A stretch of 32,874 bases of DNA from Deltaproteobacteria bacterium. GTDB taxonomy: Bacteria; Myxococcota; Kuafuiibacteriia; Kuafuiibacteriales; Kuafuiibacteriaceae. Position 1 is the stretch's first letter; the number at the start of each line of letters is the position of its first letter. The notes below the pieces were generated by a model. That model had not been told where the DNA came from and did no database searches. It saw only the letters and a list, made by a program, of their open reading frames with translations. Positions 8,937 to 27,362 of the stretch are shown here, one piece after another. The stretch lies in the NCBI GenBank assembly GCA_040218735.1, contig JAVJQW010000026.1, forward strand, positions 1 to 32,874, written 5' to 3'. The position numbers and the translations under genes were made by a program.

Positions 8937-10222
8937 ACCTCTACGAACGCGCCAAACAGCTCATCCCCGGCGGAACGCAGCTGTTGAGCAAACGCCCCGA
9001 GCTGTTCCTGCCGGACCGATGGCCCGCCTACTACAAGAGCGCGAAGGGCACCGAGGTCGAGGCGCTCGACGGGCGGCGCTTCGTGGACGTCACGTTGTTC
9101 GGCGTCGGTGCGTGTCCGCTCGGGTACGCGGACCCCGACGTGGAGGCCGCGGTCGTCGACGCCGTGCGCGGCGGGTCGATGTGCACGCTCAACGCGCCCG
9201 AGGAGGTCGCGCTCGCGGAGCGGCTCGTCGGGTTGCATCCGTGGTCCGAGCAGGTGCGCTACGCGCGCTCGGGCGGGGAGGCGATGGCGATCGCGGTGCG
9301 CATCGCACGCGCCGCTTCGGGCAAGGACCGCGTCCTCTTTTGCGGCTACCACGGCTGGCACGACTGGTACCTCGCCGCGAACCTCGCCGACGACGCCGCG
9401 CTCGACGGCCACCTGCTGCCGGCGCTCGAACCCGGGGGGGTGCCGAAGGCGCTCGCGGGATCCGTCGTGCCGTTCTCGGACCGCGCTTCGTTCGACGCCG
9501 CGATCACCAAGTACGATGACGTCGGCGTGATCGTCATGGAGCCGGCGCGCTACGCGATGCCGGACGACGGGTACCTCGAACACGTCCGCGACGAGGCGGC
9601 GCGGGTCGGGGCGGTGCTGATCTTCGACGAGATCACCGCGGGCTTTCGGATGCACGTCGGCGGGTTGCACCAGCGGCTCGGCGTCGCACCCGACGTGGCG
9701 GTGTTCGCGAAGGCGATGAGCAATGGCTACGCGATGGCGGCGGTGATCGGGCGGCGTGAGGTGATGGAGGCGGTCCAAAGCACGTTCATCAGCAGCACGT
9801 ACTGGACGGAGCGCATCGGCCCGGCCGCCGCGCTCGCTACGATCGACAAACTCGAACGCGAAGACGGGCCCGCGCGCATGGCGGCCGCGGGGGATCGAAT
9901 GCGGGCCGGGTGGCTCGCGGCGGCGGAGACGGCGGGGTTGCCGATCGGTACGAAGGGCGTCGCGCCGTTGCCGTCGTTCACGATCGAACACGACGCCCGC
10001 GCGCCGCTCGCGACGCTCTACACTCAGTGGATGCTCGATGAGGGCTACCTCGCTTCGGGCGCGTTCTACGCGACGTGCGCGCACGACGACGCGACGATCG
10101 ACCGCGCGCTGGAGGCCTCCGCGAAGTGTTTCACGCGGATGAAAGAGGCGATCGACGAAGACAAGATCGAAGCCTCGCTCACCGGTCCGGTGGCGAGCGC
10201 CGGGTTGAGGAAGTCACGATGA
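8933..10222 (+). CDS. Class III PLP aminotransferase (glutamate-1-semialdehyde aminomutase-like)
   Basis: IPGGTQLLSKRP, GYHGWHDW, LIFDEITAGFR, PDVAVFAKAMSNG, ISSTYW. Confidence 0.9.
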   Translation: MNLYERAKQLIPGGTQLLSKRPELFLPDRWPAYYKSAKGTEVEALDGRRFVDVTLFGVGACPLGYADPDVEAAVVDAVRGGSMCTLNAPEEVALAERLVGLHPWSEQVRYARSGGEAMAIAVRIARAASGKDRVLFCGYHGWHDWYLAANLADDAALDGHLLPALEPGGVPKALAGSVVPFSDRASFDAAITKYDDVGVIVMEPARYAMPDDGYLEHVRDEAARVGAVLIFDEITAGFRMHVGGLHQRLGVAPDVAVFAKAMSNGYAMAAVIGRREVMEAVQSTFISSTYWTERIGPAAALATIDKLEREDGPARMAAAGDRMRAGWLAAAETAGLPIGTKGVAPLPSFTIEHDARAPLATLYTQWMLDEGYLASGAFYATCAHDDATIDRALEASAKCFTRMKEAIDEDKIEASLTGPVASAGLRKSR

Positions 10223-11343
10223 GCGACTTCCTGCCCTACGGCCGGCAAGCGATCGACGACGACGACGTCGAGGCCGTCGTCGCCGCGCTGCGGAGTGACT
10301 TCCTCACTACCGGCCCGCGCGTCACGGACTTCGAGGCTGCGGTCGCTGACGCCGTGGGCGCCGCGTGGGGTGTCGCGGTGAACAGCGGGACGGCAGCGCT
10401 GCACGCTGCATGTTTCGCGGTGGGGGTCGACGAAGGGGATCGCGTCATCGTCCCCGCCACGACGTTCCTCGCTACCGCGAACTGCGCGCGGTTCCTGGGC
10501 GCCGAGCCGATCTTCGCGGACGTCGATCCGCGCACCGGGTTGATGACCGCCGAGACCCTCGCCGCCGCAATGCAACCCGGGGTGAAGGCGGTGATCCCGG
10601 TGCACCTCAACGGCGCGGTCGTCGACGTGGAAGCGCTCCGCGACGCCGCCGCGGGCGCTGCGATCATCGAGGACGCGTGCCACGCGATCGGCGCCGACGG
10701 CGTGGCGAAGGGGGAGCTCGCGACGTTTTCGTTCCACCCCGTCAAACACATCACCACCGCGGAGGGCGGGATGGTCACCGGCAACGATCCCGAGCACCGT
10801 CGCCGCGCCGAGCTGCTCCGAAATCACGGCATGGTGCGCGACGCCGCGCACCTCGAGAACGCGTCGCCCGGACCTTGGTACTACGAGCAGCAGGCCCTCG
10901 GGTTGAACTACCGGCTGAGTGATCTGCAGGCCGCGCTGGGGTTGTCGCAGCTGTCGAAGCTGTCGCACTTCGTCGAGCGCCGCCGTGCGCTCGCCGCGCG
11001 GTACGACGCTGCATTCGCAGCAGTCGAAGGCGTCGACCCGGTGCCGCAGGGACCCGGCAGCGCCTACCACCTGTACCCGGTGCACATCGACTTTTCGCGG
11101 CACACGCGCGCGGCGCTGATGGCGGAGCTGCGGGAGGAGAAGATCGGCACCCAGGTGCACTACATCCCGGTGCCCGCGCAGCCCTACTACGCGCGCCGCG
11201 GGTGGCGCGCCGAGGACTTCCCGGGCGCGATGCACTACTACGAGCGCGTGCTTTCGCTGCCGCTGTACCCCGCGATGACGGACGCGGACGTCGACCGCGT
11301 GGTAGAGGCCCTGGCGCAGAGGTTGGAGGCGAGGAGCGAATGA
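10219..11343 (+). CDS. pseC: UDP-4-amino-4,6-dideoxy-N-acetyl-beta-L-altrosamine transaminase (DegT/DnrJ family)
   Basis: LPYGRQAID, SDFLTTGP, NSGTAALH, IIEDACHAIG, FSFHPVKHITTAEGG, WYYEQQALGLNYR, GTQVHYIP; pse gene context. Confidence 0.93.
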   Translation: MSDFLPYGRQAIDDDDVEAVVAALRSDFLTTGPRVTDFEAAVADAVGAAWGVAVNSGTAALHAACFAVGVDEGDRVIVPATTFLATANCARFLGAEPIFADVDPRTGLMTAETLAAAMQPGVKAVIPVHLNGAVVDVEALRDAAAGAAIIEDACHAIGADGVAKGELATFSFHPVKHITTAEGGMVTGNDPEHRRRAELLRNHGMVRDAAHLENASPGPWYYEQQALGLNYRLSDLQAALGLSQLSKLSHFVERRRALAARYDAAFAAVEGVDPVPQGPGSAYHLYPVHIDFSRHTRAALMAELREEKIGTQVHYIPVPAQPYYARRGWRAEDFPGAMHYYERVLSLPLYPAMTDADVDRVVEALAQRLEARSE

Positions 11344-12332
11344 GCGGACTGGACGAAATGAGCGCGACCTTCTTCGACGGCAAGTCGGTGTTGATCACCG
11401 GCGGCACCGGGTCGTTCGGCAAGGAGTTCGTGAAGACGATCCTCGCGACGAAAGTGCGGCGCGTCGTCGTCTTCAGCCGCGACGAGCTCAAACAGTGGGA
11501 GATGAAGCAGCTCTACCCCGACGAGGAGCGGCTGCGGTTCTTCATCGGCAACGTCCGCAACCCGACGCGGCTGCACCGCGCGTTCGACGGCGTCGACATC
11601 GTGGTGCACGCGGCCGCGCTCAAACACATCGCGGCGGCCGAGTACAACCCGTTCGAAGCGGTGCACACCAACATCATCGGCGCGGAGAACGTGATCAACG
11701 CGGCGATCGACCAGGGCGTCGAGCGCGTCATCGCGCTGTCCACCGACAAAGCCTCCGGTCCCGTGAACCTGTACGGCGCGACGAAACTCGTGGCCGACAA
11801 ACTCTTCGTCGCGGGCAACGCGTACGCGGGTGGGAAGCGCACGCGCATGGCGGTCGTTCGCTACGGCAACGTGCTCGGGAGCCGCGGGAGCGTCATCCCG
11901 TTGTTCAAAAAGCTCGCGTCGACGGGGCGCCTCCCGATCACCGACGCACGCATGACACGCTTCTGGATCTCGCTGCCGAACGCGGTGGATCTCGTGCGGG
12001 TCTGCGCGGCGCACATGGTCGGCGGGGAGATCTTCGTTCCGAAGCTACCGAGCATGCGCATCACGGATCTCGCGGAGGCCATCGCGCCCGGCGCACAGCA
12101 CGACATCATCGGCATCAAACCCGGCGAGAAGCTGCACGAGGAGCTCATCAGCGAGAGCGCCGCGCGCCACACCGTCGACATGGGTCCGCACTACGTCATC
12201 CAGCCGGACGTGGAGTGGTGGGAGCACGAGCTGGAGGGCGAGCCGCTCCCCGAAGGGTTCTCGTACACGAGTGACAACAACGAGGACTGGCTGTCCATCG
12301 AGCAGCTCCGCACGATGATCGAATCGCTTTGA
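11340..12332 (+). CDS. pseB: UDP-N-acetylglucosamine 4,6-dehydratase (inverting)
   Basis: ITGGTGSFG, FSRDELKQ, HAAALKH..AAEYNPFE, LSTDKA, NLYGATK, RYGNVLGSRGSVIP, MTRFWI, GEKLHE. Alternative start 11358. Confidence 0.95.
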   Translation: MSGLDEMSATFFDGKSVLITGGTGSFGKEFVKTILATKVRRVVVFSRDELKQWEMKQLYPDEERLRFFIGNVRNPTRLHRAFDGVDIVVHAAALKHIAAAEYNPFEAVHTNIIGAENVINAAIDQGVERVIALSTDKASGPVNLYGATKLVADKLFVAGNAYAGGKRTRMAVVRYGNVLGSRGSVIPLFKKLASTGRLPITDARMTRFWISLPNAVDLVRVCAAHMVGGEIFVPKLPSMRITDLAEAIAPGAQHDIIGIKPGEKLHEELISESAARHTVDMGPHYVIQPDVEWWEHELEGEPLPEGFSYTSDNNEDWLSIEQLRTMIESL

Positions 12333-13306
12333 CGTCGCCGATCGTCATCCGCGCCGACGGCGATCGCGCCATGGGCACCGGCCACGTGATGCGTATGTTC
12401 GCGCTCGCGGAGTCGGCGCCCTCGGTGTTCGTCGCCGCGCGGTTGGACGAGGCGCTGGCGCAGCGACTCGCGACGGTCGGAGCGCGCGTGGAGCGCATCG
12501 AAGTGGAGCCCGGGAGCGTCGAGGACGCCGCGCAGACCACCGCGATCGCGGAGCACGTCGGAGCGAAGTGGATCTGCTCGGACGGGTACGACTTCGGCGA
12601 GGCGTACCAGCTCGCGGTCGCGGCATCGTCGTCGCGTCACCTCCTCGTCGACGACTACGGGCACGCGGATTCTTACGCCGCGGATCTCGTGCTCAACGCC
12701 AACGCCTACGCGGACGCTTCGATATACGCGAATCGATCCGCCGGGACCCAGCTCCTCCTCGGACCGAAGTACACCCTCCTGCGCCGTGAGTTCCTCGCGA
12801 CGAAACCCACGCCCATCCCCGGCCGTGTCCTCGTCACGATGGGCGGAGCGGATCCGGTCGACGCGACCGCCTGGGTACTCGACGCCCTCGCGCGGATCGA
12901 CGTCGACGCCGAGGTGATCGTCGGGCCCGCGAACCGACGCACGTACGAGGGCGGAGACGGCGTGCGGATCGTCGGTCCGGTGCAGGACATGGCGCCGCGC
13001 ATGGCCGAAGCCTCCCTCGCGATCGCCGCCGCCGGCACCACGACCTACGAGCTGTGCCACCTCGGCGTCCCCACGATCCTGACCGTGCTCGCCGACAACC
13101 AGGTGCGCGTCGCGGAGGCGCTCGACGCGGGCGGCGCCGCGGTGAACGTGGGCTGGCACCGCGCCTACGACGCCGCGAGGCTCGCCGACACGGTACGGGC
13201 GCTGCTCGACGACGAAGCGAGGAGGAGCGCCCTCGGCGCCGCCGCGCGGGTATTGGTCGACGGGCGCGGCGTGGAACGTGTGATGATGGCGCTGAGCGAT
13301 GGCTGA
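12329..13306 (+). CDS. pseG: UDP-2,4-diacetamido-2,4,6-trideoxy-beta-L-altropyranose hydrolase
   Basis: IRADG...GTGHVMR, LLGPKYTLLRREF, VTMGGADP, AAGTTTYE, ADNQ, VDGRG. Confidence 0.9.
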   Translation: MTSPIVIRADGDRAMGTGHVMRMFALAESAPSVFVAARLDEALAQRLATVGARVERIEVEPGSVEDAAQTTAIAEHVGAKWICSDGYDFGEAYQLAVAASSSRHLLVDDYGHADSYAADLVLNANAYADASIYANRSAGTQLLLGPKYTLLRREFLATKPTPIPGRVLVTMGGADPVDATAWVLDALARIDVDAEVIVGPANRRTYEGGDGVRIVGPVQDMAPRMAEASLAIAAAGTTTYELCHLGVPTILTVLADNQVRVAEALDAGGAAVNVGWHRAYDAARLADTVRALLDDEARRSALGAAARVLVDGRGVERVMMALSDG

Positions 13307-14348
13307 CTTCGCGATCAACGACAGAGAGATCGGCCCGGGCCACCCGACCTACCTCATCGCCGAGCTGTCCGGAAACCACGGCGGCGACATCGAGCGCGCG
13401 AAGCGGCTCGTCCAAGCGGCGGCGGACGCGGGCGCCGACGCCGTGAAGCTCCAGACCTATACCGCCGACACGATCACGATCGACTGCGACACCGAGCCGT
13501 TCCGCATCCAGACCGGGACGCTGTGGGACGGCCGCGTTCTGCACGAGCTCTACCGCGAGGCGTACACGCCGTGGGATTGGCACGACCCGCTCGCGTCGCT
13601 CGCCGAGTCGCTCGGGATGCACTGCTTCTCTTCGCCGTTCGACCCGACCGCCGTCGACTTCCTCGAGACGAAGAACGTGCCGGCCTACAAGATCGCGTCG
13701 TTCGAGCTGGTCGACCTCCCGCTGCTTCGTTACGTCGCGGCGAAGGGCAAACCGATCATCCTCTCCACCGGGATGGCGACGGCGTCGGAGATCGAGGAAG
13801 CGGTCGCAGCGATCCGCGAGACCGCGCCGGTTCCGTTGGCGTTGCTCAAGACCAACAGCGGCTATCCCGCGAAGCCGGAGGAGATGAAGCTGCGACTCTT
13901 GCCCGAGCTCGCGACGCGCTTCGACGTCGTGGCCGGCCTCTCGGACCACACCCTTGGCAACACCGTCGCGGTCGCCGCCGTCGCGCTCGGTGCGTCGCTC
14001 ATCGAAAAACACCTCACGCTCGCGCGCGCCGACGGCGGGCCCGACGCCGCATTCTCGCTGGAGCCCGCCGAGCTCGCCGCGTTGGTCGAGGCCGTCCGCA
14101 CCACGGAGGCCGCGCTGCGCGAGGGGGACTTTGGCCCGACGGAGCGCGAGCAAGGCAGCTTGCCGTTTCGCCGCTCGCTGTTCGCGGTCGAGGACATCGC
14201 GGCCGGTGACGTCTTCACCGAGGAGAACGTGCGGAGCATCCGCCCCGCGCACGGCCTCCACCCGCGGCACTTCGACGAAGTGCTCGGGCGGCGCGCCAAG
14301 CAGGCCATCGAACGAGGGACCCCGCTGTCGTGGACGCTGATCGAGTGA
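13299..14348 (+). CDS. pseI: Pseudaminic acid synthase (NeuB family with SAF domain)
   Basis: IAELSGNHGG, AVKLQTYTADTIT, YTPWDWH, FSSPFD, YKIASFE, GLSDHT, IEKH, FRRSLF, VRSIRP. Confidence 0.95.
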   Translation: MADFAINDREIGPGHPTYLIAELSGNHGGDIERAKRLVQAAADAGADAVKLQTYTADTITIDCDTEPFRIQTGTLWDGRVLHELYREAYTPWDWHDPLASLAESLGMHCFSSPFDPTAVDFLETKNVPAYKIASFELVDLPLLRYVAAKGKPIILSTGMATASEIEEAVAAIRETAPVPLALLKTNSGYPAKPEEMKLRLLPELATRFDVVAGLSDHTLGNTVAVAAVALGASLIEKHLTLARADGGPDAAFSLEPAELAALVEAVRTTEAALREGDFGPTEREQGSLPFRRSLFAVEDIAAGDVFTEENVRSIRPAHGLHPRHFDEVLGRRAKQAIERGTPLSWTLIE

Positions 14349-14785
14349 CGCTGCGCCCCGCGACCGAGGACGACGCAAGACGCCTCTTCGACTGGACCAA
14401 CGATCCCAGCACCCGCGGCGTCTCGTTCAACGCCGACCCCATCCCGTGGGACACCCACGTCGCGTGGTTGCGAAAGAAGCTCGCGGATCGGGCGTGCCGC
14501 CTCTTCATCGCGGAGGTCGACGGCGCACCGGTGGGGCAGGTGCGGCTCGACGCCGCAGCCGACCGCGCGACGATCTCCGTCTCCATCGCCAAGGCGCACC
14601 GTGGCCGTGGCTTCGGGGTCGCGGCGATCCGCGCCGCGACCGCTCACGCCGAAGTGATCGACGCGTTCATCCTCGCCGACAACGCCGCCTCGGTGCGCGC
14701 CTTCGAGCGCGCCGGCTTCACGTTCGCGGAGGACGTCGAGATCGAGGGGCGCGCCGCGGTCCGCTTCGAGTGGACGAAGTCATAG
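14345..14785 (+). CDS. pseH: GNAT N-acetyltransferase, PseH-like
   Basis: LRPATEDD..LFDWTNDP, HVAW, PVGQVR, RGRGFG, NAASVRAFERAGF; last gene of the pse operon. Confidence 0.78.
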   Translation: MTLRPATEDDARRLFDWTNDPSTRGVSFNADPIPWDTHVAWLRKKLADRACRLFIAEVDGAPVGQVRLDAAADRATISVSIAKAHRGRGFGVAAIRAATAHAEVIDAFILADNAASVRAFERAGFTFAEDVEIEGRAAVRFEWTKS

Positions 14786-15634
14786 GCACCCGTCGGCGTC
14801 GCGGAACCTGAAACACAGGCTCGGGTCCGGCCGGTTCGCGACGACGACCGCGGTGAAGACCGCGCTCGCGACCACGACACCCGTGGCGCCCCACACGTAC
14901 GGCGACTTCCACCACACGAACTGCTCCTTCAGCGCGAGCTCGACGCGCGTCGTCTCGCCCCCCTTCACCACCGCGTCGGCGCCGCCGGGCTCCCAGCCCT
15001 CGGCCGTCGCGAGGACGCGGTAGGCGCCGGGCGGGAGCGTGAACACGCCCGCCGCGCCGGTGTCCGCCGCGCCGCCGCCCTCGAGCGCGACGGTGGCGCT
15101 CGGCGGGGTAACGTCCACCTCCAGCCGCCCGCTCTCCTCGAAACCCGCGGCGGCGAGGAGCTTCGCGGCTTCGTCGGTGAGGCGCGCGACGATCGCTTGC
15201 TCGCCAGGTTGCGTGAGCTCGCCGAGGTGCTCGCCGAGCTTCGACGACGCGTCGGTGTCGAGGAGCTGGATCGAGAGCAGCGGTGGCTCCAACTCGAAGT
15301 CGATCACGACGATCATCCCGTACCGCGCGTTGAACCGACGCAGTCGGGCGGCGATGCAGCCCTCGTTGGGGCCACAGTTGCGCACGCGCTCGACGAGCCC
15401 CTCTTGGCTCGCGATGAACATCTCCTCGTAGGTGATCACGCGCAGGTCGACGCGTCGCTGCACCGCCGCGGTAATCGCCCCGAAGATCGCGGAGAGCGAC
15501 GCCGAACCGTGCGGGCCGTCCTGGACGATCGGCAGGATCGCGAGGCGCTTGCCGTACCCTTCGGCGTCCGCCGCTCGCGCCTCCGTCGCCGCGAGCGTCG
15601 CGAGCACCACCCACCACGCGATCCCTTTCGCCAT
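14780..15634 (-). CDS. Secreted PEGA-domain protein with C-terminal membrane anchor
   Basis: Signal peptide MAKGIAWW...ARA; GRLEVDVTPPSATVAL...LPPGAYRVLATAEGW (PEGA-like); WWKSPYVWG plus TM segment. Confidence 0.78.
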   Translation of the reverse strand: MAKGIAWWVVLATLAATEARAADAEGYGKRLAILPIVQDGPHGSASLSAIFGAITAAVQRRVDLRVITYEEMFIASQEGLVERVRNCGPNEGCIAARLRRFNARYGMIVVIDFELEPPLLSIQLLDTDASSKLGEHLGELTQPGEQAIVARLTDEAAKLLAAAGFEESGRLEVDVTPPSATVALEGGGAADTGAAGVFTLPPGAYRVLATAEGWEPGGADAVVKGGETTRVELALKEQFVWWKSPYVWGATGVVVASAVFTAVVVANRPDPSLCFRFRDADGCL

Positions 15635-15740
15635 CGTCGCCCGTTCGAAGTTAAGGCCGTCCGCCCTCAGAAGCCAGCATGTGGCCCGATGTCCGCATCG
15701 TTGGTTCAGCGCGCGCGCGACGCGTAGACTGTCGACCGCG

Positions 15741-16409
15741 ATGGCCACCCCGGTCCTCTTGCTCTACGGGCTCACCTGCGTCGCGCCCTGTGAGGTCGGT
15801 GCGCAGGACCGCGCGCGGCTCGAGCAGCGCGCGGTGGACATTCTCGCGAAGAAGGGCTTCGAGGTTCGTCCGGCGGCGCCCGACGCGCCACGTCCGACCG
15901 GCGGGACCTCGACGATCGGCAACGACGACGTCGCGACGCTGATGACCTCCGACCGCGTCGTCGCGCTGGACCTCGAACGCGACGGACGCACGCTGTGGAT
16001 CACGCAGTTCGTCCGCGGCGTCGTGGGCCCGTGGGCGGTCGACAAGGTGTCTTGCGATGCCGGCGGCGAAACGTTTGCGTGCCCGACCTTCGAGCGACTG
16101 CTCGTCGCCGGGCTGAGGCCCAGGACCGCGCTCGACGTGGATCTCGTCGCCGCGCTCCGCGCGCGGAGCAAGGCCGTAGGCAAGTGCATCGCCGAAGAGG
16201 ACAAGGTCCCCGCGGCGGAGCGCATCTTCGGGCGCATCGAGATGGACCTGGAGGTCCAGCCGGAGGGCCCCGTGCGGGTACGCGCGATCGCGCCGGCGCG
16301 GGTGGCGAAGGCTCGTCTCGGTGAGTGTCTGCGCGCGGCGATGGAGGCGCTGGACGTCGGCCCCTACGAGGGCGCGCCGATCCCGTTCTCCGTACCGATC
16401 GATCTCTGA
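15741..16409 (+). CDS. Hypothetical exported protein with AgmX/PglI (TonB-C-like) C-terminal domain
   Basis: AVGKC...GRIEMDLEVQPEGPV...LGECL...FSVPIDL pattern with paired Cys. Confidence 0.6.
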   Translation: MATPVLLLYGLTCVAPCEVGAQDRARLEQRAVDILAKKGFEVRPAAPDAPRPTGGTSTIGNDDVATLMTSDRVVALDLERDGRTLWITQFVRGVVGPWAVDKVSCDAGGETFACPTFERLLVAGLRPRTALDVDLVAALRARSKAVGKCIAEEDKVPAAERIFGRIEMDLEVQPEGPVRVRAIAPARVAKARLGECLRAAMEALDVGPYEGAPIPFSVPIDL

Positions 16410-16445
16410 TTGCCTAGTGCACGACGCCCGCGCGACTGAAAGGTC

Positions 16446-17153
16446 GTGCTTCGGACGCTACCGATCGCGCTCCTCCTCCTCGCGACGCCGTCGCTCGCTT
16501 TGGCCGCCGACCGCTGGTTGCTCATGCCGGTCTACGCGGCGAACCCGCCTCCGCAGGATCCGACGCTCCTCCGCCTGAGCCAGCGCGTCGGCGCGGCCAT
16601 CGCCGAGCACAACGCGGCGGACGTCCACCTCGTCTCGCGCGCCGTGCGCGAAGAGCACTGCCAAGATCACGGGCACGAGTGCCCCGATGCGATCGCGCGC
16701 ATCCTGGAGGTGGATCGGGTCATCGCCGTCGAGCTCACCGAGGACTACGAGGCCCTCGTCGCGACCGTGTTCGATCCGCCCACGCGTCGCCGGGAGCTGA
16801 GGGTCGCGTGCCAGTGGCGCGGCGGTCCGGACTGCGACCTGGACGCGCTCGGGAAGCAGATCGCCGAGGGGACGAAGTCGACGTGGGATCCGGCGCAGGT
16901 GGACGCCGCCTTCGACGCGCTCCGCCCGCGGATCGACGCCTGCCTGACGAAGGCCAAGCCCACGAAGGCCGAGCCGCGCGTGACGTTTCGGGTTCGGGAG
17001 GATGGCCGCCCCATCGAGGTCCGCATCCAGCCGAAAGCGTTGCAGCGGAAGAAGGCGTACCGCTGCGCCGCCAGGGTCGTGGAATCGCTCAGGGTTGTCC
17101 CGTTCACCGCCGACCGGATGCCCTTCGTGAACAAGCCGCTCACGTCGCCTTGA
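16446..17153 (+). CDS. Hypothetical secreted protein, possible AgmX/PglI-like C-terminal domain
   Basis: Signal peptide ending ALA; RPRIDAC...VTFRVREDGRP...YRCAARVVESLRV; AAAGG upstream. Confidence 0.6.
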   Translation: MLRTLPIALLLLATPSLALAADRWLLMPVYAANPPPQDPTLLRLSQRVGAAIAEHNAADVHLVSRAVREEHCQDHGHECPDAIARILEVDRVIAVELTEDYEALVATVFDPPTRRRELRVACQWRGGPDCDLDALGKQIAEGTKSTWDPAQVDAAFDALRPRIDACLTKAKPTKAEPRVTFRVREDGRPIEVRIQPKALQRKKAYRCAARVVESLRVVPFTADRMPFVNKPLTSP

Positions 17154-17187
17154 TCCTGTCTTGCTGAATGCCTGGGGGTGTCCTTCA

Positions 17188-18816
17188 ATGCGCGCCGTGC
17201 AGCGGCGAGCGGCGGTCTTCCTCACCTGGGCGCTCGCCCTCCTCACGCTGATACCCCGCGTCGCCGAGGCCAAGACCCGACCCTCGCTGGTCGTCCTGGT
17301 CGTCGTCGACCAGCTCGGCCGCTACTACCTCGACCGCTACACCCCCTACCTCACCCGGGGCTTCGCGCGGCTGAAGCGGGGCGCCGCGTTCTACCCGAAC
17401 GTTCGGTACGACTACGCGAACACCGAGACCGCACCGGGACATGCGACCCTCTCCACCGGCGCCTGGCCATCGGTGCACGGCATCACCGGCAACGGCTGGT
17501 ACACCGCGGGCGGCGCAGAGCGGTACAGCTTCCACGACCCGGACGTCCGGCGCGGCCCGATGAACCTCCGCGTCCCCACGATGGCGGACGCCCTGCACCT
17601 CGCGACGAACGGGCGCGGGAAGGTCGTCTCGATCTCCATGAAGGACCGCGCCGCGATCGCCCTCGGCGGGCGCGCGCCCGAGCTCGCCGCCTGGTACGAC
17701 AAGCTGTCGGGCCGCTTCATCGCGGGGAGCTGGAAGGGGACCCAGGCGCCCCCCGCCTGGTTCAACGAGGTCGCGCTGCGGCACTTGCCGGCGGATGCGT
17801 TCGAGAAGACCTGGGATCACTTCGACGACAAGGTCGACTACGCCCAGGTCGTGGGCCCCGACGACCTCCCGTACGAGGAGTCGGTCTCGGGCTTCGGGCG
17901 CACGTTCCCGCGCAAGATGGGCGCCGGCCTCGAAGGCCCGACGTCCGCGCTGTGGAAGAAGCGGTTCATGCTCGCGCCGCAGTCCATGGACGGAATGGTC
18001 GACATCGCCCTCACCGCCGTGAACGAGGAGCGGCTCGGTCAGGACGACGTCCCGGATCTGTTGGCCATCAGCTTCTCGCACCTCGACTACGCCGGGCACT
18101 ACTGGGGCTCGCACTCGCAGGAGGCCTTCGACATGCTGCGGCGGATCGACGCCCAGCTCGAACGCGTCATGCTCGCGGTCGAGGAGTCGGTCGGCGGCGG
18201 GCGCGTGATGTGGGTCCTCACCGCGGACCACGGCGCGACGCCGACCGTCGAGGCGGCGGCGTCGTTGGGCCTGCCGGCGGGGCGCCTCGATCCGAAGGAG
18301 ATCCAGCAGCTCGTCGATGGCGTGCTCGCGAAGCGAAAGAGCGGGATGCGCCTCGTGGATCTCGACACCCCCCGCGTCTTCTTCTCGCCGAACGACGACC
18401 CCGTCGAGCGCGTCGCCGCGGCGCGCGCCGTCGCGCGTGCGCTCGCGCAGCACCCGATGATCGAGGAGGCGTACGCGACCGCCGACCTCGACCAGTGGCC
18501 GCCGCCCTACGGTGAGCGCTTCCGTCGCTCCCACTACCCGGGGCGCGGCGGCGAGGTCGCGTTCCGGATCGCCGCGCACCACTACCCGTCGGACCTCGAC
18601 GAGAACGGACAGGTCGTCGCCCTCGGGTCGGGCCACGGCTCGCCCTACGCCTACGACAGCGATGTCCCCGTGTTCGTGCGGGGGCCGGGTGTGACACCCG
18701 GCGAAGACCCCCGGCCCTACACGATGACGCAAGTGGCCCCCACGATCGCTGCGGCGCTCGGCATCCTGCCGCCCGCAGCGTCGACGGCGCCGCCGCTCCC
18801 CGCGGTCACGCGGTGA
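17188..18816 (+). CDS. Alkaline phosphatase superfamily protein, PafA-like (Thr nucleophile)
   Basis: Signal peptide; VVVDQL, TETAPGHATLSTG, SMKDRAAI, DYAGHYWG, LTADHG, GHGSPYAYD. Confidence 0.9.
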   Translation: MRAVQRRAAVFLTWALALLTLIPRVAEAKTRPSLVVLVVVDQLGRYYLDRYTPYLTRGFARLKRGAAFYPNVRYDYANTETAPGHATLSTGAWPSVHGITGNGWYTAGGAERYSFHDPDVRRGPMNLRVPTMADALHLATNGRGKVVSISMKDRAAIALGGRAPELAAWYDKLSGRFIAGSWKGTQAPPAWFNEVALRHLPADAFEKTWDHFDDKVDYAQVVGPDDLPYEESVSGFGRTFPRKMGAGLEGPTSALWKKRFMLAPQSMDGMVDIALTAVNEERLGQDDVPDLLAISFSHLDYAGHYWGSHSQEAFDMLRRIDAQLERVMLAVEESVGGGRVMWVLTADHGATPTVEAAASLGLPAGRLDPKEIQQLVDGVLAKRKSGMRLVDLDTPRVFFSPNDDPVERVAAARAVARALAQHPMIEEAYATADLDQWPPPYGERFRRSHYPGRGGEVAFRIAAHHYPSDLDENGQVVALGSGHGSPYAYDSDVPVFVRGPGVTPGEDPRPYTMTQVAPTIAAALGILPPAASTAPPLPAVTR

Positions 18817-18827
18817 TTGGAAATATC

Positions 18828-20546
18828 ATGCCCCGAACCACGTTCATGAAATCGAGCACACTGTTCCTCTTCGCGGCCGCGGTCGCGTACGCGCCGACGG
18901 CGTCGGCGCAGACGAAGACCGCGACGACCACCAAGATGAAGATGCCCGAAGACGGCGGCCCGCTCCCGCGCGCGACGATGCCGGAAGGCGGCGTCGGCGA
19001 CACCTCCGGCGGGACGCCGGACACGCTGCCGCGCGCGAAGATGCCGGAGGGCGGGGCGAACCTGCACTGCCACCTGCACGAGCACCACGGCGTCGAGCAC
19101 TCGCACTGCCACGAGCACGCCGAGAGCGAAGGTCACGATCACGACCACGCCGCGGACGAGCACTGCCACGAGCACGAACACGACGGCTCGGTGCATTCAC
19201 ACTGTCACGGTCACGCCGAGGGGCGCGCGCACGGACACGACCATCCGGACGGCGTGCACTGCCACGAGCATCAGCACGACGGCGGAACGCCGCACGAGCA
19301 CTGTCACGACGAAGGCGACCCGGAGCACGACCACCACGCCGACGCCGAGGACTGCCACGCGCACGACGGCGAGACGCACTGCCACGAGGGCAAGACGGGG
19401 CACGAGCACCCGACGGGTGAGGAGGACTGCCACGAGCACGACGGCGACACCCACTGCCACGACGGCGAGGACGGTCACGATCACGACATGAAGAAGCCGG
19501 TCGCCGGCGCGACCGCGGACATGTTGCTCGGCGGAACCGGGATGGCGCTGCGCTGGAACGGTTACCTGCGCGCGGTGACGGAGTTCATCGAGAACGACCC
19601 GCGCAGCACGTTCATCGGTCGTAACGACGGCTTCAAGCTGATCAACGCGCGACTCGGTGTGCGCGCCTCGAAGGGCAACTTCTTCTCGTACGTGTCGTTC
19701 GACGCGGCGGCCGGCGAGCGCGAGCGCTTCAACGATCCGAACGTGCGCTTCGGGATGCGGCTCCGCGACGCGTACCTCGCGTACGACCTGTCGCAGTACG
19801 CGGACATCTTCGCCGGGCGGTTCAAGACGCCGTACGACCTCGCCAGCCTCAAGGCGACAGGTGCGCTCACCTTCATCGATCGCCCGGTGTACTCGCGCGG
19901 CGTCCTGCCCGGGACGGGCTTCGAGGTCGAGGGCATGCAGCAGGGCCGTCAGCTCGGCGTCATGGTCGGCAAGACCCGGATCGGTCTGTCGGAGGACGGC
20001 TTCGACATCGGCTACGCGCTCGCGCTGACGAACGGCAACACCGGCGGCCTCGCGCTCAACGACAACGACCGCCCCGCGCTGTTCGGGCGCGTGTCGGCGC
20101 ACTACGGCGACCTCGTGAGCCTCAACGTCGGCGGCTTCACGGACGCGCGCACGGTGGGTGAGCTGCCCGACCTGTTCGACGAAGACGTGAGCGGCACGGA
20201 GGTCTCGGCGCACGCGAACGTGTTCGGCTTCGAGCTCGAGGCGCAGCTGTTGTTCATCACCACGAGCTTCGACGGCGCGCGCCCCAGCGTGAATTCGCTG
20301 GGACTCCACGCGCAGTGGGCCTACACGATCTGGGGCGTGACGTTTGCGTACCGGTTCGCGTGGTACGAGCCGAACACCACGGACCTCGACGACGCAGACC
20401 AGCGCACCGAGCACACCATCGGCGTCGCTTACGGCTTGGAAGGTCTGCCCCTCACGTTCATCCTGAACGGGACGGTGGCGGGTGAGCAGCAGGGCCGGCA
20501 GGTCGACAACAACCGGCTCGCGCTGCTCGCGCAGTTCATCTTCTGA
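18828..20546 (+). CDS. Outer-membrane porin (OprO/P-like) with N-terminal His/Cys-rich repeat domain
   Basis: Signal peptide ending ASA; DGFKLINARLG, LRDAYLAY, GRFKTPY, FIDR, GRQLGVM, ALTNG; ends LAQFIF (beta-barrel terminal Phe). Start 18828 or 18846. Confidence 0.82.
   Translation: MPRTTFMKSSTLFLFAAAVAYAPTASAQTKTATTTKMKMPEDGGPLPRATMPEGGVGDTSGGTPDTLPRAKMPEGGANLHCHLHEHHGVEHSHCHEHAESEGHDHDHAADEHCHEHEHDGSVHSHCHGHAEGRAHGHDHPDGVHCHEHQHDGGTPHEHCHDEGDPEHDHHADAEDCHAHDGETHCHEGKTGHEHPTGEEDCHEHDGDTHCHDGEDGHDHDMKKPVAGATADMLLGGTGMALRWNGYLRAVTEFIENDPRSTFIGRNDGFKLINARLGVRASKGNFFSYVSFDAAAGERERFNDPNVRFGMRLRDAYLAYDLSQYADIFAGRFKTPYDLASLKATGALTFIDRPVYSRGVLPGTGFEVEGMQQGRQLGVMVGKTRIGLSEDGFDIGYALALTNGNTGGLALNDNDRPALFGRVSAHYGDLVSLNVGGFTDARTVGELPDLFDEDVSGTEVSAHANVFGFELEAQLLFITTSFDGARPSVNSLGLHAQWAYTIWGVTFAYRFAWYEPNTTDLDDADQRTEHTIGVAYGLEGLPLTFILNGTVAGEQQGRQVDNNRLALLAQFIF
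19065..19487 (+). repeat. Five tandem His/Cys protein repeats (32, 32, 31, 25 and 21 aa), each with two CH motifs
   Basis: Counted from the translation: 141 aa with 45 His and 10 Cys. Confidence 0.92.
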
Positions 20547-20557
20547 TGGGAGCCGCG

Positions 20558-23500
20558 ATGCGACGTGTTCTGTGGATAGCCGCCGTGTTGGCGGTCGCGG
20601 GCTGCAAACAGGACGACATGAAGGTCGTCGCGAAGAAGGTGCAGAACCGCGCCGATCTGATCGGCGGTCCCGGCGCGCTCGGCGACGTCGGTGACTTCCT
20701 GCTCGCGAATGAACAGGCGCGGTTCATCATCCAGGACATCGGCCCGTCGCGCGGGTTCGGCGTCTACGGTGGCTCGCTGATCGACGCGGATCTCCAGCGA
20801 CCGGTCGTCGCGGGCGACAGCTCGGGCGGCATCGGCGCGGACAACTTCTCTGAGCTGTTCCCGGGGCTGTTCCTCAAGGCGATGAACCCGACGCGCATCG
20901 AGCCGGTCCAGAACGAGGACGGCTCGGCGTCGATCGTCGTGAACGGCGAAGCCGGCGACTTCATCTTCCTCGCGAAGACGATCAACGACGTCATCATCAC
21001 CGGCGCCGAGCAGCTCGTGTTCCGCAACGAGTACCGGCTGCGGCCGGGGAAGCGGTACGTGGAGATCACCACGACGATCCGCAATATCGGCGACACCTCC
21101 GTGGAGCTCCCGGACAGCGGCGTGAACTCGCTGATCGGCGACGACCTCTCGTTCCCGCTCCCCGTCGGCGATGTGATCCTGTTCGGCGCGGGCAACGACG
21201 TGTTCTCGGAGCAGGCCGGCTTCGACATGCGCTTCACGCTCGAGGACTCCTACGAGATCCCGGTGCAGCTCCCGCAGCTCCCCGGGTTGCGCACGCCGTT
21301 CCTCGCGACGCGCAGCCCCGACATCTCGTACGGCTTTCTGTCCGGCATCACCGACCCGAACCTCTCGTTCGTGCAGCGCGCCGAGTACGAAGACGCCAAC
21401 ACCGACGACCTCCTCGTGCCCTTCCTCGCGTCCGCGTTCACCGGCGCCTTCTACGGCGCGGCGCCGACGCGGCTGTCGTCGCGCGAGGACTCGTTCCCGT
21501 CGTGTTCGTCGCCGTCGGACTGCGGCTCGAACGGGACGTGCACGCCGCTCGGGTGTGAGATCGCGTGCGACGCCGACAACCTGTGCGACGCCGGATACCA
21601 GTGCGTCGAAGGCACCTGCACCGCGAGCGCGTTCTCGTACTCGAAGTACTTCGTCGTCGGGCGCGGCGACGTCGCGTCGATCCGCGACGTCGTGCACGAC
21701 ATCCGGCAGACGCCGGTCGGGACCGTGGAGGGCGTCGTGCTGGAGCGGTTCGGGCAGGCGCCCGAGGTGGGCGTCGACGTCCTGACCTTCGACGCCGACG
21801 GCTCGCCGTACTCGCAACACACCACGGACGGCGAAGGCCGGTTCCGCGGGACGTACGCACCCGGCACCTACTCGTACCGCGTCAGCGCGGACGGTCGGTT
21901 CCCGACGAAGGCCGTCGACTTCGAGGTCCGCACGAACGAAGGCACCTTCCTGCAGATCGATCTCGACTCCCCGGGCGAGGTCTCGGTGCGCATCGTCGAC
22001 CGCGACACCGGCGAGCTGATCCCCGGCAAGTGCTCCCTCGTCGCGACCTACGGCGCGGCCGCGACGGGCTTCGAGGGGCGCGAGTTCCTCTACGAGCTCC
22101 AGCTCGGCGAGCGGCTGCGTCCGATCGATCTCATCCCGGACGGCGTCGACCCGATGACCCGCCGCTACGTCGAGGAGGTCATCATCGCGCGCAACGGTCG
22201 GCAGAAGACCCGCATTCGTCCGGGCAAGTATCGCGCGTACTGCTCGCGCGGGATGGAGTACGACGTCTACGAAGAGGACATCGAGGTCGTGCCGCGCTCC
22301 GTCGTCACGGTGAACGCGGAGCTGTCGCGCGTCGTCGACACCACGGGCTGGGCGTCCGGTGACTTCCACCTGCACTCGATCAACTCGGTCGACTCGTTCA
22401 CGCCGCTGCGGGATCGCGTGGGGCACGTCGCCGCGGAGGGCGTCGACGTCGCGGTGTCGACGGACCACAACTTCGTCACCGACTACACACGCGCGATCTC
22501 CTCGCTGGGGATCGAGCGGTTCGTGCAGGGCATGGTCGGGTTGGAGATGAGCCCGCTGGAGATCGGGCACTTCAACGGCTTCCCGCTGAAGTACGAGCCG
22601 GAGGCGGTGGGGAACGGCTCCTTCCCGTGGTCCGGGCGGCGCCCCGACGAGCTGTTCGCGGAGTTCCGCGCGCTCGCGAAGTACGGCGAGGACAACGTCA
22701 TCATCCAGGTGAACCACCCGCGCGACACGATCCTCGGGTACTTCAACGACTACAACGTGAACCCGGACACCGGCGTGCCGGAGCCGTCGACGGACCTGCT
22801 GCTGTCGCCGCCGATCACGGACGACAACGAGTTCGGTCCGGAGAAGTTCTCGTGGGACTTCGACGCAATCGAGGTCTACAACGGCAAGCGCTACGAGCTG
22901 CTGAGGCACTACCGCGTGCCCGAGCAGCTCCCGCCGCCGCCGCTGCCCGCCGACATCCCGCCGGCCGGGACCATCCTGCGCGACGCCGACGGTCAGATCG
23001 CGTTCCCCGGGGGGCTCGAGGACTGGTTCCTGCTGCTCAACCAGGGCCGCATCTACACGGGCACCGGCAACAGCGACACGCACAGCCTCGCCGACGAGCC
23101 GGGCATCCCGCGCACGTTCGTGCCGGTGTCGGACGACACGCCGAGCACGATCGACGAGCTGGAGATCGTGGACGCGCTGAAGAACCAGCGGGCGTTCGCG
23201 ACGAGCGGTCCGTTCTCCTTGGTACGCGCCGAGAGCGAAGGTTGTTTCAACCGTCGCACGGGCGCCGACCTGTCGCGCACCGCGTGCGGGATGGGCGAGG
23301 TCGCGCGGGCGACGGACGGTCGGCTCACGCTGGTCGTCGACACGCAGACGGCGCCGTGGGTGAAGATCGATCGGGTTCGCTTCGTGGTGAACGGCGACAC
23401 CAACGCCACCGTCGAGGGGGACCGGGTCTCGCTCGCGAAGGTGACGCACGAGATCACCGGGATGGAGCGCGACGGGTGGGTGATCGTCGAGATCATCGGC

Positions 23501-23842
23501 GACGAGTCGATGTTCCCGATCATCGTCCCCAACGAGCTGCCCGCGATTCAGGTGAGTGACGCGCTGGGGTCGATCGGTGGTGCGTTCGGCTTCGACCTCA
23601 ACCCCTTCGGCAACCTGTCGCCGTCGCAAGTCACGTTGACGACGCCCTACGCGTTCTCGAACCCGATCTTCATCGACGTCGACGGCAACGGCGCCTACGA
23701 CGCGCCGATGGCCGGGATGCAGGCGCTCAGCGCTTCGATCGCGCGGCCGGGTGTGAACGCCAAGCGGTTCGATCCGCACGGGATGCCGGAGCTCATGAAG
23801 GTCTTCGCGTTGTTCGCGAGCGGGTGCGGGCATTCACATTAA
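20558..23842 (+). CDS. CehA/McbA-family PHP metallohydrolase lipoprotein
   Basis: Lipobox VAGC; DLIGGPGALGDVGDFLLAN; carboxypeptidase-regulatory-like domains; PHP motifs GDFHLHS, STDHN, GHFN, QVNHPR, IEVYNG, GNSDTH. Confidence 0.88.
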   Translation: MRRVLWIAAVLAVAGCKQDDMKVVAKKVQNRADLIGGPGALGDVGDFLLANEQARFIIQDIGPSRGFGVYGGSLIDADLQRPVVAGDSSGGIGADNFSELFPGLFLKAMNPTRIEPVQNEDGSASIVVNGEAGDFIFLAKTINDVIITGAEQLVFRNEYRLRPGKRYVEITTTIRNIGDTSVELPDSGVNSLIGDDLSFPLPVGDVILFGAGNDVFSEQAGFDMRFTLEDSYEIPVQLPQLPGLRTPFLATRSPDISYGFLSGITDPNLSFVQRAEYEDANTDDLLVPFLASAFTGAFYGAAPTRLSSREDSFPSCSSPSDCGSNGTCTPLGCEIACDADNLCDAGYQCVEGTCTASAFSYSKYFVVGRGDVASIRDVVHDIRQTPVGTVEGVVLERFGQAPEVGVDVLTFDADGSPYSQHTTDGEGRFRGTYAPGTYSYRVSADGRFPTKAVDFEVRTNEGTFLQIDLDSPGEVSVRIVDRDTGELIPGKCSLVATYGAAATGFEGREFLYELQLGERLRPIDLIPDGVDPMTRRYVEEVIIARNGRQKTRIRPGKYRAYCSRGMEYDVYEEDIEVVPRSVVTVNAELSRVVDTTGWASGDFHLHSINSVDSFTPLRDRVGHVAAEGVDVAVSTDHNFVTDYTRAISSLGIERFVQGMVGLEMSPLEIGHFNGFPLKYEPEAVGNGSFPWSGRRPDELFAEFRALAKYGEDNVIIQVNHPRDTILGYFNDYNVNPDTGVPEPSTDLLLSPPITDDNEFGPEKFSWDFDAIEVYNGKRYELLRHYRVPEQLPPPPLPADIPPAGTILRDADGQIAFPGGLEDWFLLLNQGRIYTGTGNSDTHSLADEPGIPRTFVPVSDDTPSTIDELEIVDALKNQRAFATSGPFSLVRAESEGCFNRRTGADLSRTACGMGEVARATDGRLTLVVDTQTAPWVKIDRVRFVVNGDTNATVEGDRVSLAKVTHEITGMERDGWVIVEIIGDESMFPIIVPNELPAIQVSDALGSIGGAFGFDLNPFGNLSPSQVTLTTPYAFSNPIFIDVDGNGAYDAPMAGMQALSASIARPGVNAKRFDPHGMPELMKVFALFASGCGHSH

Positions 23843-23861
23843 GCGCGCTTGGCTGGCGGTC

Positions 23862-24377
23862 GTGTTCACGCCCGCGCTCGCGTTCGCGCACACCGGCGGT
23901 GTCGAGCGTTCGCTCGCGCTGGAGGCTTCGAAGGATCGGTTGCACGTCCTCGCGCACGTCGAGGTCAGCGGGAAGCAGCGCATCGAGACCTGGGTGCGGC
24001 TGGTCGACGTGGACCACGACGGCCGGCTGTCGAAGGCGGAGCGCGCGGAGCTGGAGCGGCGGCTCGTCGCACAGGCGTTGGATGGCATCCGGGTGTTCGT
24101 GGGGTCGTCCACGGTGGCGATCGAGGGCGGGCAGAGCGCGCTGAGGCTCGAGACCGGGCAACCGATCGCGTTGATGGTCCACGGGTCGGCGCCGCTCCCG
24201 GGGGGACCGCGCCAGCTGGCGGTCACCACGCGCGCCGGTGGTGCGCCTCTGAAGCTGCTCGTGCGCCCGGGGACCCGCCCCGTGGTGAAGGCTTCGCGCG
24301 GAGCGCCGTCCAAGGGGGGGCTGTCGGTCGAGATGAAGGCCGCAGATCGTGTCTCCTGGCGGATCGCGGGGGAGTGA
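23862..24377 (+). CDS. Small exported protein with EF-hand-like loop; true start may be ATT at 23838
   Basis: ALAFA|H cleavage-like site; DVDHDGRLSKAE; fills the gap between two clear genes. Confidence 0.65.
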   Translation: MFTPALAFAHTGGVERSLALEASKDRLHVLAHVEVSGKQRIETWVRLVDVDHDGRLSKAERAELERRLVAQALDGIRVFVGSSTVAIEGGQSALRLETGQPIALMVHGSAPLPGGPRQLAVTTRAGGAPLKLLVRPGTRPVVKASRGAPSKGGLSVEMKAADRVSWRIAGE

Positions 24378-25814: not shown

Positions 25815-25847
25815 GCCTGGGGCGACGCCTGCGCTAGGGTGAGCCTG

Positions 25848-27362
25848 ATGAGCGGCGACCGCTCGGACGAAGGTGCGCCCCTGGAGGTCACCGAGGAGAC
25901 CCGCGCGCTCGGGGCGGACGACGATGCGTCGTCCGGGTTCGTCGACACGTCCGACCTGTTGCCCGAGCCGGAGCCCGTCGTGGATCCGGTGGTCACCGCC
26001 GGTCAGCCGTGGGCGGAGACCACGCCCGCCAACGCCGAGGAGGAGCAGGTCCTCGTGGAGCGCGCGCCGTCGGCGCAGTGGCTCGACGTCGATGACGTCG
26101 AGGTGGTGAGCGCGCCGCCGAAGCGCGACATCCCGAGCATCGTGCCGAGCACTTCGTTCGAGGACGCGCCGAGCCTGAGCGCTTCGCTCGAGCTCGACGA
26201 CGGGTTCGCGGAGACGATCGCACGGGTGCCGGTCGTCGACGCGGACGCGGGCGCGTCGGCGTTCGACGCGCAGCTCGGCGAGGCGCTCGGGGAAGGTGTC
26301 CCGGCCGACGACCTCGTGATCGAGCCGGCGCCGTTCGATCCCTCGCCGCCGGATCCGGCGCCGTTCGATCCGACGCCCGACCTCGACGGGAGTGACTCGG
26401 TCGGGCTCGTGCCGACCAGCGACGCCGAGGTGTGGGCCGAAGAGGTCCCCGAGCCTTTGGAGGCCGAGTGGGCCGTCGATGCGTCGGCGGATGCCTCCGA
26501 GGACGCCACGTCGATCTTCGCGGCGGAGCTGTCGAACTGGAGTCCGCCGGTGGTGCAGGACGACCCGGCGCCGGAGATCACGCCGAGCTTCGCGCCGACG
26601 CCGCTGTCGCAGCTCGAGGTGACGCCGAGCTTCGCGCCGGAGCCGGCGGAGATCGAGCACATCGAGGAAGCCGAGGACGCGGACGCGTACCTCGGCGACG
26701 GTCCGTTCGCGGCGCCGGTGGACGCGCCGCCGCCGACCGCGGATCGTTTCGCGCGCGAGCTTCAGCAGCACCCGCCGATGGCGTCACGGCACGCGCCGCT
26801 CGGTCGTCTGCAGCGGGAGCGCTCCGTCGGTGTCGATCAGTCGATTCGTTTCGAGCGCCGCGCGCAGCAGCGTCGCGCGACCCCCGTCCCGTCTTCGCCC
26901 GCGAAGGCCAAGGTCGCGGCGAAGGTCGCGAGCAAGAAGGTCCCGCGGCGTTATCCGAAGATGCTCGCGCTGCTCCGCGATCCCGACACCGTGCCGATGG
27001 GGAACGCGGCGCCCGAGCCCGAGGTTCAGCCGCCCGTGCCGGGGACGTTCTTCCCGGCCGCCAAACCTCCGCGTCCGACGCCGGCGCCCGCGGATCTCGA
27101 TGGTCTCCTCGCGACGATGGCGGAGGGGCTGTTGATCGGCGAGACGCCGGAGGGGGAGACCGAGGTTCGGGTCACGCTGAAGGACGAGTTCTTCGCGGGG
27201 ACGGAGCTGCGCATCACGCTCGGCGCCGGCAAGCTCAAGGCGACACTCGTGCCGCCGGACCGTGAGATCTATTGGCAGCTCGCGGGCAACGTGGATGCGC
27301 TGCGCGATCGCCTCACCGGGCGTGGCCTGTCGGTCACCGAGATCACCGTCGCGGACCCATGA
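25848..27362 (+). CDS. Acidic Pro-rich protein with C-terminal FliK/YscP/HrpP-like (T3S4) domain
   Basis: Long D/E/P/A-rich, probably disordered region followed by EVRVTLKDEFFAGTELRITLGAGKLKATL...LRDRLTGRGLSVTEITV. Start 25839 or 25848. Confidence 0.68.
   Translation: MSGDRSDEGAPLEVTEETRALGADDDASSGFVDTSDLLPEPEPVVDPVVTAGQPWAETTPANAEEEQVLVERAPSAQWLDVDDVEVVSAPPKRDIPSIVPSTSFEDAPSLSASLELDDGFAETIARVPVVDADAGASAFDAQLGEALGEGVPADDLVIEPAPFDPSPPDPAPFDPTPDLDGSDSVGLVPTSDAEVWAEEVPEPLEAEWAVDASADASEDATSIFAAELSNWSPPVVQDDPAPEITPSFAPTPLSQLEVTPSFAPEPAEIEHIEEAEDADAYLGDGPFAAPVDAPPPTADRFARELQQHPPMASRHAPLGRLQRERSVGVDQSIRFERRAQQRRATPVPSSPAKAKVAAKVASKKVPRRYPKMLALLRDPDTVPMGNAAPEPEVQPPVPGTFFPAAKPPRPTPAPADLDGLLATMAEGLLIGETPEGETEVRVTLKDEFFAGTELRITLGAGKLKATLVPPDREIYWQLAGNVDALRDRLTGRGLSVTEITVADP

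Follow-up and report, generated by a model that had tools for sequence, protein, structure and literature searches.

The porin locus

The window analysed here is the whole 32,874-nt stretch of contig JAVJQW010000026.1 (GCA_040218735.1), whose host is an uncultured marine Myxococcota-type bacterium. Around the porin gene investigated in this work, the following genes were found:

15432..16409 (probably starting near 15738) and 16446..17153, + strand: two conserved upstream genes, syntenic in most related loci
17161..18816, + strand: exported PafA-like alkaline phosphatase/phosphodiesterase (Pfam Phosphodiest, E 2.5e-32), with a 4-nt overlap with the porin ORF
18828..20546, + strand: porin gene, 572 aa from the ATG at 18828, with 63 homologues, Pfam Porin_O_P and a GC3 of 0.92
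20546..23842, + strand: CehA/McbA (PHP-type) metallohydrolase, a putative lipoprotein of 1098 aa (NCBIfam NF038032, E 6.5e-33, above the cut-off), with a 1-nt overlap

The porin ORF opens at a GTG (18813) and extends on the + strand to 20546, encoding 577 aa, and the residue numbers below follow this longer version. The true start is likely the ATG at 18828, since the homologues and the Atlas record begin there. The ORF is also the sole frame with a high GC3 at the locus. The upstream phosphatase matches NCBIfam PafA with an E-value of 3e-85, but its 286.7 bits are below the equivalog cut-off of 650, and we treat it as a relative from the same superfamily and not as a proven PafA. The start of the downstream hydrolase is lipobox-like. 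No Pfam family was found for the two conserved upstream genes, which encode exported proteins and are likely in the same operon as the porin. Of the 17 loci that could be assessed, 15 have the PHP hydrolase downstream of the porin and 12 have the phosphatase upstream, with this synteny being independent of the presence of the His module described below. A downstream small protein with a DxDxDG loop is also syntenic.

Contigs from independent assemblies cover the region. In another study (X2, sponge metagenome), a contig of 22,864 nt aligns without gaps over 17100-23899 and differs by 34 substitutions; a third study (X5) supplies a contig of 764 nt that aligns over 18815-19578 with 3 substitutions, and further contigs (X3) reach across 19065-19743. 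No insertions or deletions relative to the window are listed in these contigs, and the misassembly that the initial annotation had named as a possible source of the repeats is ruled out, given that X2, X3 and X5 all reproduce the His/Cys region without indels. Within the porin CDS, 11 of the 12 strain differences are synonymous, one His and one Cys codon among them; the sole replacement, E104K, is sited in a linker. Because the independent contigs are free of indels and the differences are mostly synonymous, the His/Cys region is correctly assembled and under purifying selection.

An ordered histidine/cysteine array between signal peptide and barrel

The porin is composed of a leader, a Pro/Gly-rich segment, an array of five units rich in His and Cys, and a barrel:

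18828..18908, + strand: Sec-type signal peptide (aa 6-32, MPRTTFMKSSTLFLFAAAVAYAPTASA followed by Q), read by eye; AF2 helix 15-25
18909..19064, + strand: Pro/Gly-rich segment of 52 aa, with the motif TST..MPEDGGPLPRAxMPEGG twice
19065..19157, + strand: unit 1 (aa 85-115), HCHLHEHHGVEHSHCH plus HDHDH linker; 12 residues between Cys; AF2 hairpin 84-91/94-101
19158..19253, + strand: unit 2 (aa 116-147), HCHEHEHDGSVHSHCH plus HGHDH linker; 12 residues between Cys; AF2 hairpin 117-123/126-132
19254..19346, + strand: unit 3 (aa 148-178), HCHEHQHDGGTPHEHCH plus HDHH linker; 13 residues between Cys; AF2 hairpin 149-153/161-165
19347..19421, + strand: unit 4 (aa 179-203), short form DCHAHDGETHCH plus HEH; 8 residues between Cys; AF2 hairpin 181-184/187-190
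19422..19487, + strand: unit 5 (aa 204-225), short form DCHEHDGDTHCH plus HDHD; 8 residues between Cys; AF2 hairpin 206-209/212-215
19545..20543, + strand: 16-strand beta-barrel (aa 245-577), AF2 pLDDT about 90, with Foldseek matches

Translation of positions 19065-19487 (+ strand) yields 141 aa with 45 His, 10 Cys, 21 Glu, 20 Asp and 17 Gly, while the other 436 residues of the 577-aa ORF have 4 His and no Cys. The array thus is 32% His and 29% Asp+Glu, plus Gly, with 41 acidic residues (Asp+Glu) against 2 basic ones (Lys+Arg). All five units are of the CH...HC type, their Cys being separated by 12, 12, 13, 8 and 8 residues. The three long ones read HCHxHxH(D/H)GxxHxHCH and then G..HxHxH, the two short ones DCHxHDGxxHCH and then HxH, and a period of 96 nt with 76% matches was found over the first three units with TRF. 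The residue counts, Cys spacings and motif strings of the initial annotation were all correct on translation, and so was the location that it gave for the array, between a signal peptide (read by eye) and an OprO/P-like barrel (Pfam Porin_O_P and the AF2 barrel). The CxxCH and clustered Cys motifs of c-type cytochromes or Fe-S repeats are absent from the sequence, where paired Cys stand 8-13 residues apart; with no CxxCH, the identity as a c-type cytochrome or Fe-S binding repeat was ruled out.

Two AF2 runs were made, one of the full-length protein with 55 sequences and one of the His/Cys domain alone with 12 sequences. Both predict one two-strand beta-hairpin per unit around the D/G turn, five in all, and the strand ranges place the Cys pairs 86/99, 118/131, 150/164, 181/190 and 206/215 across the strands, face to face in all five units. 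The model agrees with the hairpins with a Gly turn and flanking Cys that had been proposed from the sequence. Considering the pLDDT of 50-77 in the hairpins and the domain pTM of 0.23, we take the hairpin fold as a prediction of moderate confidence. The linkers have a pLDDT below 50 and, together with the same pTM, this would make the units beads on a string, with no packing between units predicted. On such a hairpin, His 0, 2, 4, 6, 11, 13 and 15 would be on one face, and the opposite one would be shared by the variable residues and by Cys 1 and 14. A hairpin of 14-16 residues with a face of seven His would represent a compact natural metal-binding scaffold, unnamed in any database.

The Pfam Porin_O_P match (PF07396) has an E-value of 1.6e-8 and 34.7 bits, against a gathering cut-off of 20.9, and is partial, spanning aa 262-413 and profile positions 15-175 of 370; in the genome-wide scan, the porin scored 35.6 bits with the same family. 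No NCBIfam match was found for the porin. Foldseek of the AF2 barrel recovered 16-strand trimeric porins, with VhChiP and Omp-Pst1 first, OprP (2o4v) at rank 8 (E 1.3e-11) and OprO at rank 33; 4rjw was also matched. A PDB search with the sequence profile of the whole porin family found no chains. Many Arg residues are invariant in the family (R280, R379, R426, R514 and R568), and the Pro/Gly motif MPEDGGPLPRAxMPEGG is kept in nearly all members; in this genome, it is confined to the porin gene, save one chance-like match. In porins, an even number of strands leaves both termini on the periplasmic side. Since the predicted barrel has 16 strands, this established topology would place the N-terminal His/Cys extension in the periplasm, at the channel exit.

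Search for the unit in other proteins and genomes

Phmmer with the His/Cys domain against 1.84 billion representatives returned 2 matches, both of the same porin family. A profile of 12 sequences run against 5.8 billion clusters recovered 16 clusters of the family and one fragment of the same porin; its further matches, at E 0.07-0.88, are generic His-rich metal proteins (PF02492 CobW/HypB, PF10670 DUF4198, PF10986 ZrgA and PF02583, CsoR-type). As the non-porin matches did not go beyond this range, the named metal-binding domains considered (ZnuA, ZinT, ZrgA, HypB/CobW, DUF4198 and metallothionein) were discarded for lack of significant similarity. For aa 85-225, no Pfam family was found at E<=10, nor any PDB sequence for the His/Cys domain at the same threshold, and the ESM Atlas gave no usable match, with all structure rows at TM<0.3. 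This fits the initial impression that the segment is not a recognised named domain, and the search for other carriers proposed along with it found the unit only within this porin family.

At the genome level, 51 stretches in 185,579 species genomes fit the pattern and 2 passed, one of them being an orthologue. The second (L002) was discarded as an antisense-frame artefact. A degenerate DNA pattern had no matches in metagenome contigs, though carriers sourced from jgi exist, so that this negative carries no weight. Within the 11.6-Mb genome of the host, a regex search found the units confined to the porin gene, besides one chance CHAHDQAHC. Of the four Porin_O_P paralogues in this genome, just the one that belongs to the phosphatase operon has His/Cys units. 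The unit is likely absent outside the porin family, which falls short of proof since the composition correction of HMMER and the word pre-filter limit sensitivity. The literature searched, mostly titles and abstracts, contained no account of a porin with a His/Cys repeat. The repeat is real, conserved, lineage-restricted and unnamed.

Conservation and distribution of the units

We compiled 48 units from 14 proteins, 24 of them twelve-spaced. Among these 24, H0 is found in 23, H4 in 24, H6 in 23, G8 in 24, H11 in 23 and H15 in 24, all of them positions unconstrained by the search pattern, while positions 3, 5, 9, 10 and 12 vary (E/L/S/Q/D). In the 12-protein alignment of the array, the H, C and G columns are invariant. 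Such position-specific conservation of His, Cys and Gly across homologues bears out an ordered repeat rather than a random His tail, as first suggested.

Of the 63 relatives, 16 have 1-6 CH units, another 6 contain a His-rich stretch with 28-39 His but no Cys, and 41 have at most 5 His before the barrel, some of these 41 proteins being truncated. The number of units in orthologous porins therefore varies from 0 to 6, a variation that the initial annotation had proposed to look for. One protein (P0012) contains three near-identical units. The porin was found in 11 of 20 genomes of the order, which has one family, and CH units in 4 of these 11: the present genome (5 units), G011 (6), G004 (1) and G001 (1). 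In the G001 assembly, unit and barrel are in different reading frames. Carriers come from sponge, biofloc and aquaculture metagenomes.

The form without Cys reads HSHTHGGKEHSHTHSH, keeping the same alternation and the Gly turn, with Ser/Thr at the Cys positions. On the barrel-only tree, this group is one clade (98*). The CH group requires 4 changes on the barrel tree (quick method, unrooted), and starred branches force at least 2 of these, a pattern that would mean a history of repeated loss or transfer of the CH module. Since the sister clade without Cys retains the pattern with Ser/Thr, the His face may be the working part and the Cys structural.

Comparison with known systems

The closest comparison for the barrel is OprP/OprO of Pseudomonas aeruginosa (PF07396; 2o4v, 4rjw), with which the porin shares a family match above the cut-off and a 16-strand barrel, and its phosphatase gene context resembles that of starvation-induced porins. 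However, OprP and OprO do not have an N-terminal His/Cys array, and the present barrel is nearer to general porins than to OprP by Foldseek rank, has only a partial Pfam match and finds no PDB chain with the family profile.

Known His-rich segments are described as driven by composition and largely disordered, and those of ZnuA and ZinT are periplasmic. The array has in common with the ZnuA loop, the ZinT N-terminus, HypB, the SlyD tail, Hpn/Hpn-2 and the RcnA loop a composition of His with Asp/Glu/Gly and, presumably, multi-ion binding of moderate affinity. It differs from them in its fixed register, its turn at Gly, its Cys pairs and its predicted hairpins, and no sequence relationship with any of these segments was found (HypB/CobW profile matches at E>=0.07). 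It is unusual among His-rich metal-binding segments in being made of ordered, predicted hairpins bracketed by Cys and in being fused to the porin of a phosphatase operon. Carbonic anhydrase-type zinc sites combine HxH with a cross-strand His on a beta-sheet, and the predicted hairpins would offer this kind of His geometry, as a geometric analogy only and with no homology. Expansion of the RcnA loop is outlined in PMC11247825. For phosphorus stress, SmtA of Synechococcus WH8102 is presented in PMC3865332 as a Zn store co-regulated with P-stress proteins and a proposed supplier of alkaline phosphatase. SmtA is a cytoplasmic, Cys-rich protein that stands alone and shares no sequence relationship with the array, whereas a store in the present protein would lie in the periplasm, rely on His, be attached to a porin and come from the same operon.

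Possible function of the array

It is very likely that the array binds metal, because of its composition, its fixed His face and the fact that its sole weak sequence neighbours are metal proteins. Zn is favoured considering the His/Asp/Glu chemistry and the neighbouring enzymes, while the H-C-H arrangement, having Cys, could be just as suitable for Cu, Ni or Co. The Cys may also act as ligands if reduced. We favour structural disulfides, since the sister clade has Ser/Thr at these positions and VKOR is present; two VKOR homologues in the genome make the formation of periplasmic disulfides plausible in this host, in which DsbB was not found.

As a tentative interpretation, with a chance a little short of even, we suggest that the array is a porin-tethered periplasmic reservoir or buffer of divalent metal, most likely Zn, for the co-encoded exported metalloenzymes. 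We propose this because translational coupling links the porin gene to the genes of a PafA-like phosphatase with Sec-type export and of a large PHP-type metallohydrolase. The protein would be an outer-membrane porin of the trimeric 16-strand type, from the OprO/OprP Pfam family, with a periplasmic N-terminal extension consisting of a string of five small beta-hairpins. Each of them would expose up to seven His on one face and, on the other, two Cys opposite one another, probably as a disulfide staple, and would lead into a flexible, acidic linker with HxHxH at its end. Such an array would bind divalent transition-metal ions, most likely Zn2+, perhaps around 1-2 per hairpin and one per linker, which would amount to some tens per trimer. 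Tethered in this way, it could keep metal at hand for neighbouring enzymes that are metalated outside the cytoplasm. Exported zinc enzymes, such as the PhoA- and PafA-type phosphatases, must acquire their metal there, and the metal supply of exported enzymes in zinc-poor water is the question behind the idea of zinc-phosphorus co-limitation. PafA, like PhoA, is described in PMC12594817 as Sec-exported and dependent on external zinc.

On the other hand, the operon is equally conserved in many orthologues that do not have the His module. The neighbouring enzymes therefore do not need it, and a specific role in metal supply is weakened, since most orthologous operons are without the module. It is doubtful that the array goes further and acts as a dedicated zinc chaperone, a disulfide-stapled and self-folding "histidine-ladder hairpin" that would load the Sec-exported phosphatases of the operon, with the HTHSH form without Cys as an independent solution of the sister clade. 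If this were true, it would represent a built-in answer to zinc-phosphorus co-limitation in marine heterotrophs. The physical tie between an ordered His array and the porin of a phosphatase operon makes the question of metal supply in zinc-poor water directly amenable to experiment on a single small domain.

Another reading, with a limited chance, is that the array buffers metal in the periplasm generally or acts as a detoxification sponge (Zn, Ni, Co, Cu or Cd), carried by an abundant porin and with no functional tie to the phosphatases. This would account for a module that is optional in a conserved operon and patchy on the tree, for a composition like that of storage or buffer segments generally, for weak profile neighbours that are Ni/Co/Zn proteins, and perhaps for the kinds of metagenomes where carriers occur. 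A general sponge would not be expected, however, to appear among 5.8 billion clusters on one porin family only and never on another envelope protein or a free protein, nor to be limited, within the four paralogues of this genome, to the copy in the phosphatase operon. Besides, the porin of the same operon has, at the same position, a second His-rich form, without Cys, which either arose there or was retained.

Improbable, in our view, is a regulatory plug or anion-handling tail, where the protonated or metal-loaded array would gate the pore from its periplasmic end or bind phosphate or phosphoesters that emerge from it. The array is indeed tethered directly to a Porin_O_P-type barrel whose top Foldseek match is VhChiP, which is described as a porin with an N-terminal plug; the pKa of His is close to physiological pH and immobilised metal binds phosphate groups. 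But a domain so strongly acidic (41 Asp+Glu against 2 Lys+Arg) would repel phosphate unless loaded with metal, and a plug is hard to reconcile with an array of 141 aa and variable length, separated from the barrel by a linker of low confidence and missing from most orthologues.

The variation from 0 to 6 copies, the recent tandem duplication in P0012, the 96-nt period found by TRF in the window and the low pLDDT of the linkers could also be the signs of a low-complexity repeat that expands neutrally, serves no specific function and is tolerated within a disordered linker at the N-terminus. This has only a slim chance, as the His, Cys and Gly positions are strict across clades at 45-50% overall identity, with the residues between them free to change, the strain differences are mostly synonymous, and the clade without Cys retains the hairpin pattern. 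Capture of metal at the cell surface, with the N-terminal region threaded outside and scavenging seawater metal as the extracellular His/Cys loops of zinc TonB-dependent receptors might suggest, is highly improbable, given that a 16-strand barrel would leave the N-terminus on the periplasmic side and that no passenger-export architecture was detected with Pfam.

Regarding expression, the promoter region yielded no operator of the Pho or Zur type, and in the divergent promoter region of 8 loci no 12-mer beat shuffles as a shared operator. In the metatranscriptome run X21, only a few low-depth contigs of 151 nt map to the porin gene, which falls short of proof of transcription. A TAGAC(T/A) hexamer, similar to a -10 element, is present in 4 of the 8 promoter regions.

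Conserved gene order around the porin

The order of the genes around the porin is kept across positions 15432-24377 of the window and in the related loci L016-L031, as follows:

CarboxypepD_reg protein, - strand
two exported proteins without assigned function
PafA-like phosphatase
porin
1098-aa PHP-CehA lipoprotein
small protein with a DxDxDG EF-hand-like loop

This arrangement appears to be a so far undescribed operon for phosphorus scavenging in this Myxococcota-type family. A TAGAC(T/A) hexamer occurs in 4 of 8 loci, 10-25 nt 5' of the point where the first gene of the operon starts (about 15700-15730 in the window, with counterparts in L001, L018, and L024). The hexamer may be a -10 element, in which case the leader would be very short.

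Variation in the N-terminal region of the porins

The N-terminal motif TSTxxxMPEDGGPLPRAxMPxGGV(DDG) is family-wide, being present in the window porin (18909-19064) and in nearly all relatives (P0004-P0063), with 1 to 5 copies per protein. It occurs in porins both with and without the downstream His module and has no Pfam match; it may serve this porin family for docking or anchoring.

In a sister clade, a Cys-less His-rich array of the HSHTHGGKEHSHTHSH type, containing 28 to 39 His, occupies the same position as the His/Cys array. It was found in L024 (6154-6546) and in the proteins P0035, P0040, P0041, P0045, P0048, and P0049.

In locus L017 of G001, a genome of the same order, the N-terminal part of the porin, which includes one CH unit (about 7400-7900, - strand), is out of frame with the barrel in this assembly; the cause is a frameshift or else a misassembly within the repeat that encodes the His residues. 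The database protein P0037 (360 aa) spans the porin barrel only.

Other genes in the window

Two further regions were observed:

7491-14785, nonulosonic-acid (pseudaminic/legionaminic-type) sugar cluster: cytidylyltransferase, aminotransferases, Polysacc_synt_2 dehydratase, glycosyltransferase, NeuB synthase, and GNAT acetyltransferase
25839-27362, 507-aa protein whose C-terminal part has a FliK-like match to Flg_hook at 27.2 bits, short of the Pfam cut-off of 29.8 bits

The latter match is odd, this lineage not being known to have flagella.
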